DNA of 64,000 nucleotides from assembly GCF_003790525.1 (NCBI RefSeq), contig NZ_CP033635.1; one strand, given 5' to 3'. Source of the stretch: Escherichia coli (GTDB lineage Bacteria > Pseudomonadota > Gammaproteobacteria > Enterobacterales > Enterobacteriaceae). The position numbers and the translations under genes are program-made. Positions 25,829 to 43,453 of the stretch are shown piece by piece. Position 1 is the stretch's first letter, and every line of letters begins with the position of its first letter. Under the pieces are notes generated by a model. The model did no database searches. It had not been told where the DNA came from and was given only the letters and a program-made list of their open reading frames with translations.

Positions 25829-25836
25829 AACTGCAT

Positions 25837-25931
25837 AAAAAAAATAGAGTCTGTCGACATCCGCCAGACTCTACAGTACACACAGCAGTGCATCCGCGTC
25901 TTAAATCCGGCATGGTCTCCTCTGCGCCGGT
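25837..25931 (-). ncRNA. mcaS: McaS (IsrA) small regulatory RNA
   Basis: Minus-strand sequence ACCGGCGCAGAGGAGACCATGCCGGATTTAAGACGCGGATGCACTGCTGTGTGTACTGTAGAGTCTGGCGGATGTCGACAGACTCTATTTTTTTT matches remembered McaS, including terminal hairpin and U-tract; located between abgR and smrA as in K-12. Confidence 0.85.
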
Positions 25932-29308: not shown

Positions 29309-29430
29309 GCAGGTGAATGCAACGTCAAGCGATGGGCGTTGCGCTCCATATTGTCTTACTTCCTTTTTTGAATTACTGCATAGCACAATTGATTCGTACG
29401 ACGCCGACTTTGATGAGTCGGCTTTTTTTT
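29309..29430 (+). ncRNA. fnrS: FnrS small regulatory RNA (FNR-activated)
   Basis: GCAGGTGAATGCAACGTCAAGCGATGGGCGTTGCGCTCC...CGCCGACTTTGATGAGTCGGCTTTTTTTT matches remembered FnrS; 3' hairpin plus U8. Confidence 0.9.
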
Positions 29431-33997: not shown

Positions 33998-34224
33998 TGA
34001 ATAAATCCTTTAGTTATTTTATTTGCCTTTTATCCCCATTTCGGGGAGTGAAAACATCCTAAAGGAGAAGTTCAGTTAGCCGATAAATATCATTTGTTAC
34101 GCCTTAAGTAAAACCTTAATCAAATAATTCCTCTGAAATGATAATAAGTCTGGTGAATGTATCGAAGATAATACATACAAAATAAAAATTATACTTTTAA
34201 TTTGCTATACGTTATTCTTCGCGG

Positions 34225-34334
34225 GTTATATGCCTTTATTGTCACAGATTTTATTTTCTGTTGGGCCATTGCATTGCCACTGATTTTCCAACATATAAAA
34301 AGACAAGCCCGAACAGTCGTCCGGGCTTTTTTTT
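34225..34334 (+). ncRNA. micC: MicC small regulatory RNA
   Basis: GTTATATGCCTTTATTGTCACAGATTTTATTTTCTGTTGGGCCATTGCATTGCCACTGATTTTCCAACATATAAAAAGACAAGCCCGAACAGTCGTCCGGGCTTTTTTTT matches remembered MicC; divergent from ompN. Confidence 0.9.
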
Positions 34335-34362
34335 AGAATTGGATAATCCTTATCCAGAGCAT

Positions 34363-38956: not shown

Positions 38957-39946
38957 TTAAACCAGTTCGTTCGGGCAGGTTTCGCCTTTTTCCAGATTGC
39001 TTAAGTTTTGCAGCGTAGTCTGAGAAATACTGGTCAGTGCTTCTGCTGTCAGGAATGCCTGGTGCCCGGTAAACAGCACGTTGTGGCAGGCAGACAGACG
39101 ACGGAATACGTCATCCTGGATCACGTCGTTGGATTTGTCTTCAAAGAACAGATCGCGTTCGTTCTCATACACGTCCATACCCAACGAACCAATTTTCTGA
39201 TTTTTCAGCGCTTCAATTGCTGCCTGAGAATTAATCAATGCACCGCGACTGGTATTGACGATCATCACGCCATTTTTCATCTGATCGAAGGCGGCTTCGT
39301 TCAACAGATGATAGTTTTCCGGTGTCAGCGGGCAGTGCAGAGAGATAACGTCTGATTCAGAGAACAGGGTTGGCAGATCGACATACTCCACACCGAGTTC
39401 CAGCGCCGCCGCACTTGGATACGGATCGAACGCCAGCAGACGCATACCAAAACCTTTCAGAATGCGCAGCATCGCCACACCGATTTTACCAGTACCGATA
39501 ACGCCTGCCGTTTTGCCATACATAGTAAAGCCGGTCAGACCTTCCAGAGAGAAGTTGGCGTCACGGGTACGCTGATACGCGCGGTGAATACGGCGGTTCA
39601 GCGTCATCATCATACCGATGGCATGTTCAGCAACGGCTTCTGGATCATAGGCTGGAACACGGACTACTTTCAGCCCCAGTTCTTTTGCCGCGTCAAGGTC
39701 GACGTTATTGAAACCGGCACAGCGCAGGGCGATATATTTAACGCCGTGCTTTTTCAGCTCTTCCAGCACCGGGCGGCTGCCGTCATCGTTTACGAAAATA
39801 CATACCGCTTCGCAGCCATTGGCAGTTTTAGCGGTTTTTTCCGTCAGCAGAAAGTCAAAAAATTCCAGCTCAAAGCCAAAGGACTCGTTCACCTGTTGCA
39901 GGTACTTCTTGTCGTACTGTTTTGTGCTATAAACGGCGAGTTTCAT
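38957..39946 (-). CDS. ldhA: Fermentative D-lactate dehydrogenase (NAD-dependent)
   Basis: 329 aa; GVIGTGKIG dinucleotide fold; D-2-hydroxyacid dehydrogenase family. Confidence 0.93.
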   Translation of the reverse strand: MKLAVYSTKQYDKKYLQQVNESFGFELEFFDFLLTEKTAKTANGCEAVCIFVNDDGSRPVLEELKKHGVKYIALRCAGFNNVDLDAAKELGLKVVRVPAYDPEAVAEHAIGMMMTLNRRIHRAYQRTRDANFSLEGLTGFTMYGKTAGVIGTGKIGVAMLRILKGFGMRLLAFDPYPSAAALELGVEYVDLPTLFSESDVISLHCPLTPENYHLLNEAAFDQMKNGVMIVNTSRGALINSQAAIEALKNQKIGSLGMDVYENERDLFFEDKSNDVIQDDVFRRLSACHNVLFTGHQAFLTAEALTSISQTTLQNLSNLEKGETCPNELV

Positions 39947-40153
39947 AAGACTTTCTCCAGTGATGTTGAATCACATTTAAGCTACTAAAAATATTTTACA
40001 AAATTTCAAATATAATTGAAAGCTATGGCGATATTGAAAAATTCATCAACAACTATGCTTAGTGTAGGCGCAACCTTCAACTGAACGGTTAAACATGCCA
40101 CAATACCCGTATTGAATGCTTAATTTTTCGCTAAATCAGGATATTAACTACCC

Positions 40154-42793
40154 ATGCTGGGTAAATATAAAGCCGTTCTCGCGCTGTTATTACTGATTAT
40201 TCTTGTGCCGTTGACGCTGCTGATGACGCTCGGGCTGTGGGTTCCTACGCTGGCGGGCATCTGGCTACCGCTCGGGACACGTATTGCATTAGATGAAAGC
40301 CCACGCATTACGCGTAAAGGTTTAATCATTCCCGATCTCCGTTATCTGGTGGGAGATTGTCAGCTTGCGCATATCACCAACGCCAGCCTTTCACATCCCA
40401 GCCGCTGGTTATTGAACGTCGGCACGGTAGAACTTGATTCTGCTTGTCTGGCGAAATTGCCGCAGACGGAGCAATCGCCAGCCGCTCCAAAAACCCTCGC
40501 GCAGTGGCAGGCCATGTTGCCTAACACCTGGATCAATATCGATAAACTGATTTTTTCTCCCTGGCAGGAATGGCAGGGAAAACTCTCTCTCGCATTAACC
40601 TCCGATATCCAGCAACTGCGTTATCAGGGCGAAAAAGTTAAATTTCAAGGCCAGCTGAAAGGGCAACAACTTACAGTCAGCGAACTGGATGTCGTCGCGT
40701 TTGAAAATCAGCCGCCGGTTAAACTGGTGGGGGAATTTACTATGCCGCTCGTGCCGGATGGACTTCCGGTAAGTGGGCATGCTACTGCGACGTTAAACTT
40801 GCCGCAGGAACCGTCACTGGTGGATGCAGAGCTGGACTGGCAGGAAAATAGCGGGCAATTGATCGTGCTGGCACGGGATAACGGCGATCCGTTGCTCGAT
40901 TTGCCGTGGCAAATTACTCGTCAACAATTGACCGTAAGCGATGGTCGCTGGAGCTGGCCGTATGCAGGTTTTCCTTTGAGTGGCCGACTGGGTGTCAAAG
41001 TCGACAACTGGCAGGCAGGGCTCGAGAACGCTCTGGTCAGCGGACGACTGAGTGTGCTGACCCAGGGGCAAGCGGGTAAGGGCAACGCGGTGCTTAATTT
41101 TGGCCCAGGAAAATTAAGCATGGATAACAGCCAGCTGCCTATGCAACTGACCGGTGAAGCGAAACAGGCGGACCTCATTTTATATGCCCGTTTACCTGCG
41201 CAGCTAAGTGGAAGTCTGTCTGACCCAACGTTGACCTTTGAGCCAGGCGCGTTACTTCGTTCAAAGGGAAGAGTCATTGATTCGCTGGACATCGATGAAA
41301 TCCGCTGGCCTTTAGCGGGTGTAAAAGTCACCCAACGTGGTATTGACGGACGTTTGCAGGCCATTTTGCAGGCGCATGAAAATGAACTGGGCGATTTCGT
41401 GCTGCATATGGATGGACTGGCGAATGATTTTCTCCCTGACGCTGGCCGCTGGCAGTGGCGCTACTGGGGAAAAGGCAGTTTTACACCGATGAATGCCACC
41501 TGGGATGTCGCAGGAAAGGGTGAGTGGCATGACAGCACGATTACGCTGACCGATCTCTCCACCGGTTTCGACCAGTTACAATACGGTACGATGACGGTAG
41601 AAAAGCCGCGACTAATTCTCGACAAGCCCGTCGTCTGGGTACGTGACGCACAGCATCCCTCCTTTAGCGGCGCGCTGTCACTGGACGCCGGGCAAACGCT
41701 GTTCACTGGCGGCAGTGTGTTACCGCCATCGACCTTAAAATTTAGCGTCGATGGACGCGATCCGACGTATTTCCTCTTTAAAGGCGATTTACATGCTGGT
41801 GAGATTGGCCCGGTTCGGGTAAATGGTCGCTGGGACGGTATTCGTCTGCGCGGTAACGCCTGGTGGCCTAAACAATCACTGACCGTATTCCAGCCGCTGG
41901 TGCCACCCGACTGGAAGATGAACTTACGCGATGGCGAACTATATGCCCAGGTCGCATTTTCTGCTGCGCCTGAACAAGGATTCCGCGCGGGAGGGCACGG
42001 CGTGTTGAAAGGCGGTAGTGCCTGGATGCCAGATAATCAGGTTAACGGTGTCGATTTTGTCCTGCCTTTCCGTTTTGCCGATGGAGCCTGGCATCTGGGG
42101 ACTCGCGGCCCCGTTACGTTGCGAATTGCCGAAGTGATTAATCTGGTGACAGCGAAAAATATTACGGCTGATTTGCAAGGGCGTTATCCGTGGAGTGAAG
42201 ACGAACCATTGTTGTTGACCGATGTTAGCGTCGATGTGTTAGGCGGTAACGTGCTGATGAAACAATTACGTATGCCGCAACATGACCCGGCGCTGTTGCG
42301 GCTGAATAATCTTTCCTCCAGCGAACTGGTTAGCGCCGTCAATCCGAAACAATTCGCCATGTCCGGGGCATTTAGTGGTGCATTGCCGTTATGGCTAAAC
42401 AACGAAAAATGGATAGTGAAAGATGGTTGGCTGGCAAATAGCGGGCCAATGACCTTGCGGCTGGATAAAGACACCGCAGATGCGGTGGTGAAAGACAATA
42501 TGACTGCGGGTTCAGCAATTAACTGGTTGCGCTATATGGAAATTAGCCGTTCATCGACAAAAATTAATTTAGATAATCTCGGTTTATTAACCATGCAGGC
42601 CAACATTACAGGTACCAGTCGCGTTGATGGTAAAAGCGGTACGGTAAATCTTAATTACCATCATGAAGAGAATATTTTTACGCTGTGGCGCAGTTTACGC
42701 TTTGGCGATAATCTCCAGGCATGGTTGGAGCAGAACGCACGTCTGCCGGGAAATGACTGTCCGCAAGGAAAAGAGTGTGAGGAAAAACAATGA
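40154..42793 (+). CDS. ydbH: AsmA-like large membrane-anchored periplasmic protein
   Basis: 879 aa; N-terminal TM anchor; stop overlaps ynbE start (ATGA). Confidence 0.9.
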   Translation: MLGKYKAVLALLLLIILVPLTLLMTLGLWVPTLAGIWLPLGTRIALDESPRITRKGLIIPDLRYLVGDCQLAHITNASLSHPSRWLLNVGTVELDSACLAKLPQTEQSPAAPKTLAQWQAMLPNTWINIDKLIFSPWQEWQGKLSLALTSDIQQLRYQGEKVKFQGQLKGQQLTVSELDVVAFENQPPVKLVGEFTMPLVPDGLPVSGHATATLNLPQEPSLVDAELDWQENSGQLIVLARDNGDPLLDLPWQITRQQLTVSDGRWSWPYAGFPLSGRLGVKVDNWQAGLENALVSGRLSVLTQGQAGKGNAVLNFGPGKLSMDNSQLPMQLTGEAKQADLILYARLPAQLSGSLSDPTLTFEPGALLRSKGRVIDSLDIDEIRWPLAGVKVTQRGIDGRLQAILQAHENELGDFVLHMDGLANDFLPDAGRWQWRYWGKGSFTPMNATWDVAGKGEWHDSTITLTDLSTGFDQLQYGTMTVEKPRLILDKPVVWVRDAQHPSFSGALSLDAGQTLFTGGSVLPPSTLKFSVDGRDPTYFLFKGDLHAGEIGPVRVNGRWDGIRLRGNAWWPKQSLTVFQPLVPPDWKMNLRDGELYAQVAFSAAPEQGFRAGGHGVLKGGSAWMPDNQVNGVDFVLPFRFADGAWHLGTRGPVTLRIAEVINLVTAKNITADLQGRYPWSEDEPLLLTDVSVDVLGGNVLMKQLRMPQHDPALLRLNNLSSSELVSAVNPKQFAMSGAFSGALPLWLNNEKWIVKDGWLANSGPMTLRLDKDTADAVVKDNMTAGSAINWLRYMEISRSSTKINLDNLGLLTMQANITGTSRVDGKSGTVNLNYHHEENIFTLWRSLRFGDNLQAWLEQNARLPGNDCPQGKECEEKQ

Positions 42794-42975
42794 AAATTTT
42801 ACTGGCTGCGTTGACGTCATCTTTTATGCTGGTTGGCTGTACGCCTCGCATTGAAGTCGCTGCCCCTAAGGAACCGATCACTATCAATATGAACGTTAAA
42901 ATTGAGCATGAGATCATCATCAAGGCAGACAAAGATGTCGAAGAGCTGCTTGAGACCCGTAGCGATCTTTTTTGA
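42790..42975 (+). CDS. ynbE: Small lipoprotein
   Basis: 61 aa; lipobox LVGC. Confidence 0.85.
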   Translation: MKILLAALTSSFMLVGCTPRIEVAAPKEPITINMNVKIEHEIIIKADKDVEELLETRSDLF

Positions 42976-42979
42976 GGTG

Positions 42980-43306
42980 ATGATGAAAAGAACATTACTT
43001 CTTTGTGCATTTCTTGTTGGCTTGGTAAGCAGCAATGTAATGGCATTGACTCTGGATGAAGCCAGAACTCAGGGGCGGGTAGGTGAAACATTTTATGGTT
43101 ATCTGGTTGCGCTGAAAACGGATGCTGAAACAGAGAAATTAGTAACCGACATTAATGCCGAACGTAAAGCGAGTTACCAACAACTGGCAAAGCAAAATAA
43201 TGTGTCGGTAGATGATATCGCGAGACTGGCGGGGCAAAAGCTCGTATCTCGCGCTAAATCAGGAGAATATGTGCAGGGCATTAACGGAAAATGGTTACAG
43301 AAATAA
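42980..43306 (+). CDS. ydbL: Periplasmic protein (DUF1318)
   Basis: 108 aa from MKRTLLLCAFLVGLVSSNVMA; SD GAGGTG. Confidence 0.85.
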   Translation: MMKRTLLLCAFLVGLVSSNVMALTLDEARTQGRVGETFYGYLVALKTDAETEKLVTDINAERKASYQQLAKQNNVSVDDIARLAGQKLVSRAKSGEYVQGINGKWLQK

Positions 43307-43402
43307 GAACGTCTGCCCCGCTTGTTGCGGGTATAGTTCTCTACTACACGACTTCTTTCATCGCAGCCTGGTAGATTCGAACAATTCACACAGGAGGCAA
43401 CA

Positions 43403-43453
43403 ATGAGCTACAAAATAGAATTTCTGCGTTTATTATCGGTTCAAGTAAAATAA
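43403..43453 (+). CDS. Candidate 16-codon small ORF (MSYKIEFLRLLSVQVK) with strong SD
   Basis: AGGAGG 7 nt upstream of ATG, in AT-rich ydbL-ydbA spacer; no other support. Confidence 0.25.
   Translation: MSYKIEFLRLLSVQVK

Follow-up and report, generated by a model that had tools for sequence, protein, structure and literature searches.

The DNA between positions 40154 and 43306 of the window (64,000 nucleotides of contig NZ_CP033635.1, Escherichia coli assembly GCF_003790525.1) carries three genes on the + strand: ydbH (40154..42793; 879 aa; PF11739, NF007971), encoding an inner-membrane-anchored protein of the AsmA-like or repeating-beta-groove type, ynbE (42790..42975; 61 aa; PF13617), encoding an outer-membrane lipoprotein with a mature chain of 45 aa, and ydbL (42980..43306; 108 or 107 aa, depending on which of two adjacent in-frame ATGs is taken; PF07027), encoding a periplasmic DUF1318 protein. 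The gene positions given in the initial annotation (ydbH 40154-42793, ynbE 42790-42975, ydbL ending at 43306) were confirmed from the open reading frame list and the raw sequence. The operon stretch shows 100% DNA identity to E. coli SMS-3-5, and 5,409 of the 5,426 complete E. coli genomes carry the 3,153-bp stretch at 80% coverage or more, with the genes annotated as ydbH/ynbE/ydbL. All three products match Pfam families (YdbH, PF11739, E=1.2e-290; YnbE, PF13617, E=3e-16; YdbL, PF07027, E=1.3e-30), and because of these E-values and the near-universal presence of the stretch in E. coli genomes the three are true genes, not chance open reading frames. The idea that ydbH is the sole real gene and the two small frames are chance or mis-annotated could appeal to their shortness (61 and 107 aa), to their GC content (0.44 in ynbE and 0.43 in ydbL vs 0.52 in ydbH) and to the NCBIfam search, in which no model matched YnbE or YdbL. 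It has already been refuted and keeps a negligible probability, since, besides the Pfam matches, the mature YnbE sequence is almost invariant over 80 genomes, the YdbL structure has been solved, and the two proteins have been seen and manipulated in experiments (PMC11126948; bioRxiv 10.64898/2026.03.16.712125).

YdbH aligned to PF11739 with 967.8 bits (cutoff 26.3) over profile positions 1-892 of 893, and to the NCBIfam equivalog NF007971 with 1400 bits (cutoff 824). Kyte-Doolittle windows of 19 residues scored above 1.6 only when starting at residues 1-22, with the top scores (2.7-2.95) at starts 7-10, and the AlphaFold2 model (pLDDT 87) is helical at residues 2-24 and 26-37 and continues with some 55 beta strands. 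Both place a transmembrane anchor at approximately residues 7-29 (AVLALLLLIILVPLTLLMTLGLW; 40172..40240, + strand), bearing out the N-terminal anchor that the initial annotation had assigned to this 879-residue protein, and YdbH thus shows the single N-terminal membrane anchor and large periplasmic domain of AsmA-like/repeating-beta-groove proteins. A Foldseek search of the model against the PDB returned low-TM matches only (ApoB100, LptD), on which no conclusion is based. In an hhalign comparison of a 33-sequence YdbH profile with E. coli TamB, no significant sequence similarity was detected (3.2% probability, E 0.014, 108 columns), the sensitivity being limited because the template was a single sequence. 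We take the AsmA-like assignment of YdbH in the literature to be based on fold and Pfam clan membership. The residues known as suppressor sites (T303, G305, G308 and G456) are wild type here.

YnbE matched the YnbE-like lipoprotein family PF13617 with 59.3 bits (cutoff 25.8). Its lipobox, L14-V15-G16-C17 (42829..42840, + strand), is the LVGC motif noted earlier in this 61-aa product; C17 is invariant in our alignment A1 and is the lipidated residue 1 of the mature protein, and by the Lol +2 rule the Thr18 at position +2 would fit sorting to the outer membrane. The beta strand I30-I38 (ITINMNVKI; 42877..42903, + strand) extends the YdbH groove (PMC11126948). A1 shows no variation at its residues I32, N33 and V36, the strand motif ITINMNVKIEH is conserved both in A1 and in the 80 genomes, and the relaxed motif IN[MIL][NH]V[KVM][IV][DE]H matched at least 595 loci. 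The C-terminal helix and tail, K45-F61 (42922..42972, + strand), form the YdbL-binding region (De'Ath 2026, bioRxiv 10.64898/2026.03.16.712125). The PF13617 match, the Cys lipobox, the strand motif and the overlap directly 3' of ydbH together place this protein in the YnbE family.

YdbL matched PF07027 with 106.1 bits (cutoff 27) and, over residues 22-107, the PDB entry 28oj_A ('Probable chaperone-like protein YdbL'; E=2e-48). It begins with a Sec signal peptide (residues 1-21, MKRTLLLCAFLVGLVSSNVMA followed by LT, cut after V-M-A; 42983..43045, + strand), with a KD-19 score of 2.11 at residues 5-25; the crystallised mature chain of 28oj_A aligns from residue 22, in agreement with cleavage between VMA and L. 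Profile match, signal peptide and homology to a solved structure all assign it to the YdbL family, and the nine residues listed as functional or YnbE-binding (E35, Y40, N58, E60, L68, N72, R90, W104 and K107; De'Ath 2026, bioRxiv 10.64898/2026.03.16.712125) are all kept at the same positions. The length of 108 aa and the start 5 nt past ynbE, proposed earlier, hold for the ATG at 42980 (counted from the final base of the ynbE stop codon), but RefSeq calls the gene in this strain from the ATG at 42983, giving 107 aa. The latter codon is better placed, lying 5 nt from the GAGG at 42974-42977 vs 2 nt for the ATG at 42980. In K-12, YdbL reaches 108 aa from the second ATG, with one additional residue at its C-terminus, whereas here 108 aa are reached from the first ATG only.

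The operon is separated from the divergent ldhA (- strand, start 39946) by a 207-bp intergenic region (39947..40153), within which its promoter presumably lies; a sigma-70 consensus scan of 39800-43900 found no site in this spacer, the counts being at chance level. A terminator scan of the same interval, likewise with counts at chance level, found nothing 3' of ydbL, and an Rfam scan of the whole window gave no RNA family match in or next to the operon. A small GC hairpin (CCCGC-TTGTT-GCGGG; 43317..43331, + strand; -15.8 kcal/mol) follows 11 nt past the ydbL stop; it was not called by the terminator scan and folds no better than expected from its shuffles (z=-1.75), and is possibly a weak terminator candidate. 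Within the operon, the Shine-Dalgarno sequence of ynbE (GAGGA; 42779..42783, + strand) lies inside the ydbH coding sequence, 6 nt 5' of the ATG, and the ydbH TGA shares bases with the ynbE ATG in the ATGA at 42790..42793 (+ strand), the overlap claimed in the initial annotation. An intragenic Shine-Dalgarno sequence with an ATGA overlap is documented for this gene pair (PMC11126948; PMC10666635), and coupling across it has been directly measured for the K-12 orthologues (PMC10666635). Among 80 Enterobacterales loci the overlap is -4 in 65 and -1 in 7 (together 72/80). The ATGA overlap couples translation of ydbH and ynbE by termination-reinitiation. The ydbL gene has, as also noted earlier, its own Shine-Dalgarno sequence (GAGGTG; 42974..42979, + strand), which overlaps the ynbE stop (TGA, 42973-42975), and it starts 4-14 nt past ynbE in the majority of the 78 Enterobacterales genomes with the gene.

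The same operon is known from K-12 as YdbH-YnbE-YdbL (b1381-b1383; Kumar, Davis and Ruiz 2024; De'Ath et al. 2026), with the same gene order, ATGA overlap and GAGGTG-ATGATG junction. YnbE is identical to its K-12 counterpart, YdbH agrees in 873 of 879 residues (A196T, L330M, V397I, I493V, T681S, E683D) and YdbL in 100 of 107 (K3R, A55T, K81R, A89S, P93S, V105L, R106Q), with the last residue of K-12 YdbL missing here. All residues reported to be functionally important in K-12 are present, and apart from the YdbL end residue the differences are allelic substitutions only. The flanks differ: K-12 has feaR-feaB-tynA-paa 3' of ydbL, whereas the strain studied here has an intact 1,984-aa autotransporter. 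The locus is a near-identical allele of a system whose genetics, biochemistry and structure were worked out between 2021 and 2026, and it adds nothing new to it. With high confidence we regard it as an ordinary E. coli ydbH-ynbE-ydbL operon that encodes a protein bridge between inner and outer membrane, for which a part in keeping outer-membrane lipids balanced has already been demonstrated experimentally; the reading in the initial annotation is correct, yet it was already published and is not new.

In the mechanism proposed, YdbH would sit in the inner membrane by its one N-terminal helix and send a long, curved groove of beta sheet, hydrophobic on the inside, across the periplasm, too short by itself to reach the outer membrane. 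YnbE, held in the outer membrane through lipidated Cys17, would add I30-I38 to the last YdbH strand (beta-strand augmentation) to give a continuous groove, along which the acyl chains of phospholipids presumably slide between the membranes; that lipid passes through the groove, which way it passes and how many YnbE copies make up one bridge are inferred. YnbE would be prone to self-polymerise, likewise by strand augmentation, and YdbL, bound to the YnbE C-terminal helix K45-F61, would limit runaway multimerisation as a dose-sensitive, non-essential, chaperone-like modulator. The ATGA overlap and a 4-7 nt spacer would couple translation and probably help to fix the protein ratios. The experimental basis comes from K-12 and comprises synthetic lethality, YdbH-YnbE cross-links, YnbE multimers, binding of YdbL to YnbE peptide and the YdbL crystal structure. 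YdbH is AsmA-like and redundant with TamB and YhdP for outer-membrane lipid homeostasis, as seen by synthetic lethality (PMC8593681), and it cross-links to YnbE and needs it for function (PMC11126948), as does YdbH of Pseudomonas aeruginosa (PA5307) with its YnbE (PA5306; PMC12447247). These experiments match the earlier reading of YdbH as an AsmA-like protein with a small lipoprotein partner, and the synthetic-lethality, interaction and outer-membrane homeostasis tests then suggested are all already in the published literature.

YdbH-YnbE might instead be mainly an envelope tether, or an assembly aid for another outer-membrane component, with the lipid imbalance arising indirectly. The literature holds no direct transport assay, the authors themselves describing lipid transport by YdbH-YnbE as lacking direct biochemical proof (PMC11126948), the modelled complex of YdbH and one YnbE measures about 180 A vs a periplasm of about 250 A and is too short to cross it (PMC11126948), and TamA, the partner of TamB, is established as acting in the assembly of outer-membrane proteins. 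However, the redundancy of YdbH with TamB and YhdP is specific to outer-membrane lipid homeostasis (PMC8593681), its continuous hydrophobic groove resembles that of eukaryotic lipid-transfer bridges, function is lost when proline kinks are placed in the YnbE strand (both PMC11126948), and a periplasm-spanning fusion of YdbH with YhdP's C-terminal region does without YnbE (PMC12447247). Phospholipid transport by the TAM complex has also been reported from cryo-EM and lipidomics (PMC13119328). We therefore consider the tether or assembly role highly improbable and keep to phospholipid carriage as the probable role of YdbH-YnbE.

The part played by YdbL departs from the dedicated three-component module of the initial annotation: the two-part YdbH-YnbE bridge stands, but YdbL is a modulator rather than an equal partner. 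Deletion of either small gene had been expected to phenocopy loss of ydbH in sensitised backgrounds; in tamB yhdP strains deletion of ynbE does so but deletion of ydbL does not, being viable and phenotypically silent (PMC11126948). Periplasmic YdbL binds the YnbE C-terminus, as mapped alongside the solved structure, and acts specifically on the YdbH-YnbE complex (De'Ath 2026, bioRxiv 10.64898/2026.03.16.712125). That YdbL is a stoichiometric subunit of a true three-subunit bridge, and not a transient chaperone-like modulator, could be argued from its docking by AlphaFold-Multimer and MultiFold2 on the YdbH C-terminus as well as on YnbE (PMC11126948; bioRxiv 10.64898/2026.03.16.712125), from the loss of function of the YdbL variants W104A and K107A, which lie at the predicted contact with YdbH (bioRxiv 10.64898/2026.03.16.712125), from the drop in YdbH levels without YdbL (PMC11126948) and from the close spacing of ydbL behind ynbE across Enterobacterales. 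We think this improbable, however, because, besides the silent deletion, the YdbH-YnbE cross-links remain without YdbL (PMC11126948), surplus YdbL is lethal in the tamB yhdP background and lowers YnbE multimers (PMC11126948; bioRxiv 10.64898/2026.03.16.712125), and seven distant loci and two Enterobacter genomes have no ydbL next to ydbH-ynbE.

Among related systems, TamB (1,259 aa) is paired with the Omp85 beta-barrel TamA and lacks a YdbL-like modulator, whereas the partner of YdbH is the 45-aa lipoprotein YnbE. YhdP is, like YdbH, an AsmA-like, redundant, putative phospholipid bridge (PMC8593681; PMC11126948), but it is thought to span the periplasm alone through C-terminal hydrophobic helices, and the fusion that dispenses with YnbE was made by joining its C-terminal region to P. 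aeruginosa YdbH (PMC12447247). The eukaryotic repeating-beta-groove lipid-transfer proteins VPS13, ATG2 and BLTP1/LPD-3 are far larger, cytosolic and located at organelle contact sites, and their kinship with YdbH is one of fold, not of recognisable sequence. The action of YdbL on YnbE has been compared to that of CsgC on CsgA (Kumar 2024, PMC11126948), in which a small periplasmic protein also curbs amyloid-like beta-strand polymerisation of its client; the folds are unrelated, however, and YdbL is helical and attaches to YnbE at a C-terminal helix, not at the strand that polymerises (bioRxiv 10.64898/2026.03.16.712125). Phospholipid delivery to the Gram-negative outer membrane has been a long-standing gap, to which the mutually redundant YdbH-YnbE, TamB-TamA and YhdP are the present answer, and the three are potential antibiotic targets.

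What our analysis adds is modest and stems from the comparison of loci alone. Of the 9 distant loci that were informative, 8 have YnbE directly 3' of YdbH, as do all 80 Enterobacterales genomes sampled; YdbL comes next in 78 of the 80, a share that overstates its universality because the sample consists of the best 80 genomes and is skewed to E. coli-like YnbE. No uncalled ydbL copy was found in the distant ydbH loci with a custom HMM run on six-frame translations. By gene content, YnbE is the partner that stays constant and YdbL the one that can be dispensed with, in agreement with the deletion genetics; the 'fixed small partners' of the initial annotation hold for YnbE but not for YdbL, which is missing beside ydbH-ynbE in several lineages. 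The terminal LF of YnbE is present in 78/78 ydbL-bearing loci, and YnbE has lost its terminal Phe in the loci without ydbL, an independent fit to the published YdbL-YnbE interface. Although the fused YnbE-YdbL gene calls P0001 and P0006-P0008 (155-173 aa) could be real fusions, they were left out of account as probably arising from frameshifts or misassembly, since ynbE and ydbL are not in frame with each other and only one or two contigs carry each call. In four Pasteurellaceae-type loci the module lacks ydbL, and a translationally coupled gene upstream of it encodes a polytopic membrane protein of 272-274 aa (Pfam PF27206, 'HI_1241'). The trio might be one form of a more plastic module, in which YdbL is a lineage-restricted add-on that tracks a YnbE '...S(D/G)LF' tail and the HI_1241 protein could partner YdbH in the inner membrane, loading lipid or acting in the manner of a scramblase, a speculative reading that we hold to be doubtful and that concerns other lineages, not the window itself. 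The analogy offered for the HI_1241-family protein and YdbH is with eukaryotic bridge-like lipid-transfer proteins, which pair with scramblases.

The ydbH-ynbE-ydbL operon (window 40154-43306, + strand) was recovered as a real three-gene unit from both the ORF list and the raw sequence. The ydbH gene occupies 40154-42793 (879 aa) and ynbE 42790-42975 (61 aa); the TGA of the former and the ATG of the latter share the tetranucleotide ATGA, and the Shine-Dalgarno sequence of ynbE (GAGGA) is located within ydbH, 6 nt upstream of the ATG. The ydbL gene, ending at 43306, has two adjacent in-frame start codons: ATG 42980, 5 nt past ynbE, gives the 108 aa product of the initial annotation, whereas RefSeq starts the protein of this strain at ATG 42983 (107 aa), and a GAGG overlapping the ynbE stop is better spaced for ATG 42983. 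YdbL of the reference strain K-12 begins at the second ATG and has 108 aa, with one additional C-terminal residue. Such tight junctions couple the synthesis of the three proteins; the ydbH-ynbE overlap is one of three native E. coli pairs used for measuring termination-reinitiation coupling (PMC10666635).

The targeting signals read initially from the sequence were all found. YdbH has a single strongly hydrophobic segment, at its N-terminus, YnbE carries the lipobox L14-V15-G16-C17 (with Thr at position +2), and YdbL begins with a Sec signal peptide whose last residues are V-M-A, the crystallised mature chain aligning from residue 22. Over its 3,153 bp the operon matches E. coli SMS-3-5 and several further strains at 100% identity. 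Among 5,426 complete E. coli genomes, 5,409 carry it at 80% coverage or more, with the annotation ydbH/ynbE/ydbL. Five of the 5,418 operon matches in this search lay on plasmid-labelled records. YdbH matched Pfam PF11739 ('Intermembrane phospholipid transport protein YdbH', E=1e-290) and the NCBIfam equivalog NF007971 (1400 bits), YnbE matched PF13617 ('YnbE-like lipoprotein') and YdbL PF07027 (DUF1318); that the small ORFs are spurious is the weaker explanation. Compared with K-12, YnbE is identical, YdbH differs by six conservative substitutions, and YdbL is identical at 100 of 107 positions. According to residue lists from the literature, the YdbH gain-of-function sites T303, G305, G308 and G456 are wild type here, the YnbE strand I30-I38 and the YnbE helix are intact, and all YdbL residues of reported functional importance are retained. 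The identity of the locus is essentially certain.

An AlphaFold2 model of YdbH (mean pLDDT 87) was built from an alignment of 33 full-length homologues, drawn from an exhaustive phmmer search that yielded 595 representatives, about 32 of them full-length 50%-identity clusters. In this model a run of about 55 consecutive beta strands is flanked by an N-terminal and a C-terminal helix. Foldseek of this model against the PDB gave no usable match, and profile comparison found no significant sequence similarity to E. coli TamB. The fold searches are compatible with the family without discriminating it. Membership in the YdbH family is therefore firm, and YdbH is placed in the wider AsmA-like/RBG superfamily on the strength of its fold and of the literature.

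The system has been characterised extensively. A literature search returned six papers mentioning all three genes, and sixteen from 2022 onwards mentioning both ydbH and ynbE. Loss of tamB, yhdP and ydbH is synthetically lethal, and tamB yhdP defects are suppressed by multicopy ydbH-ynbE-ydbL (Ruiz et al. 2021, PMC8593681). With a length of about 180 A, YdbH does not reach across the periplasm (Kumar, Davis and Ruiz 2024, PMC11126948). The same study reported photo-cross-links at W791 and W857 of YdbH and at several positions of YnbE, loss of function when prolines were placed in the YnbE strand, and multimerisation of YnbE, which increased without YdbL or without YdbH. The structure of YdbL at 2.1 A (PDB 28oj), binding of a YnbE E39-F61 peptide by YdbL (NMR and native-MS), interface mutants and degradation of free YdbL by DegP have also been described (De'Ath et al. 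2026, bioRxiv 10.64898/2026.03.16.712125). In P. aeruginosa, YnbE (PA5306) adjoins YdbH (PA5307) and is required for its function (PMC12447247). All experiments proposed in the initial annotation are therefore already in print, and the finding is already known.

The YdbH-YnbE bridge and the YdbL-YnbE interaction have been shown by experiment in K-12. YdbH and YnbE together form a two-protein bridge between the membranes; that lipid flows through the groove, in which direction, and how many YnbE copies take part are inferred, and the view that YdbH-YnbE serves primarily as a tether or in assembly, and not in lipid transport, is weaker. The literature supports the proposed AsmA-like lipid-transport module, but its two partners are unequal, because in the tamB yhdP background YnbE is essential and YdbL is not; surplus YdbL is lethal in such cells (PMC11126948). 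YdbL is an accessory, dose-sensitive modulator of YnbE polymerisation, and its interpretation as an obligate structural subunit is weaker.

This inequality extends to gene distribution, where the description of both small partners as fixed holds for YnbE but not for YdbL. A scan for the conserved YnbE motif in one genome per species confirmed at least 595 loci, and the best 80 of these, a sample skewed to E. coli-like YnbE, were all from Enterobacterales (Escherichia, Salmonella, Citrobacter, Klebsiella, Enterobacter, Kosakonia, Pantoea, Erwinia, Serratia, Rahnella, Hafnia and others). Among these best 80, ydbH lay immediately 5' of ynbE in all (with a -4 overlap in 65 and a -1 overlap in 7) and ydbL immediately 3' in 78, mostly after a spacer of 4-14 nt; mature YnbE had 45 aa in nearly all of them and was almost invariant (C[TVI]PRIE..ITINMNVKIEHEI.IK.DKDVE.LLK..S[DG]LF). 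The gene neighbourhoods of ten divergent YdbH representatives, with identities from 65% down to 26%, were also inspected, six-frame translations being searched with purpose-built YnbE and YdbL HMMs. The ynbE gene was directly 3' of ydbH in eight of nine informative representatives (nine loci; the database match P0165 was read at two places), and ydbL was absent from all loci with sufficient downstream sequence (L005, L007, L008, L009, L010, L012, L013 and L015). In the sole exception to ydbH-ynbE adjacency, L012, which encodes a 973-aa YdbH homologue (4001-6922), no YnbE gene was revealed by gene calls or the YnbE HMM in the 4 kb flanking ydbH on each side; this YdbH may represent a longer variant that works without a partner, or the partner gene may lie elsewhere.

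The presence or absence of ydbL was accompanied by differences in the YnbE tail. The terminal Phe (...S[DG]LF) was retained in all 78 ydbL-bearing loci among L016-L095, whereas in the two Enterobacter genomes in which ynbE is followed by unrelated genes at the locus, YnbE ended in ...SDLL and ...SDLHN (L061, 5001-5189; L082, 4959-5144). The other ydbL-less loci, among them L015 (5655-5897) and L010 (6619-6858), had a YnbE without the terminal Phe or with a divergent, extended tail. This co-pattern, a lead of some novelty from outside the window, fits the published YdbL-YnbE (K45-F61) interface. Among the Escherichia YdbL database matches (P0042-P0088) two allele classes were seen, one about 93% identical to the window protein, the other (about 71-75%) common to E. 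albertii, E. marmotae and some E. coli. The latter class differs around residues 59-63, next to E60 and R61, which contact YnbE.

A second lead of some novelty, likewise outside the window, comes from Pasteurellaceae-type loci, in which a gene for a 272-274 aa polytopic membrane protein lies directly 5' of ydbH with a TAATG stop/start overlap (L007 and L008, both 3177-4001; L009, 2001-2825; L013, 131-949); at these four loci ynbE is present and ydbL absent. The protein has about 7-8 hydrophobic segments and a precomputed match to Pfam PF27206 ('HI_1241'), with no match in the Pfam and NCBIfam profile copies searched, and a literature search found no paper with the term HI_1241. It might serve YdbH as a partner in the inner membrane.

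In K-12 the feaR-feaB-tynA-paa cluster lies directly 3' of ydbL, whereas this strain lacks it there (window 43307-49718) and has a 457-bp spacer, found in only 46 of 5,426 E. coli genomes, followed by an intact gene for a 1,984-aa autotransporter (43764-49718) with 16.5 copies of a 21-bp repeat encoding PDDGGNT (44098-44443). The spacer contains a 16-codon ORF, MSYKIEFLRLLSVQVK (43404-43454, +), with a strong AGGAGG Shine-Dalgarno sequence 6 nt upstream but annotated in none of the matching genomes; it could encode a leader peptide or have arisen by chance. The ynbA-ynbB-ynbC-ynbD operon is situated about 12 kb 3' of ydbL (window ~55.3-59.9 kb; NC_010498.1 1768727-1773307), and its products are all lipid-related enzymes (a CDP-alcohol phosphatidyltransferase, a CdsA paralogue, a hydrolase/methyltransferase and a PAP2 phosphatase). 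It is nearer to ydbL than in K-12 because the paa island is absent here, and the proximity is probably coincidental. Three small RNAs scored above the Rfam gathering threshold in the window: McaS (25836-25931, -), FnrS (29309-29426, +) and MicC (34222-34342, +), the last adjoining a porin gene labelled ompC by RefSeq which, judged by its position, is likely the ompN locus.
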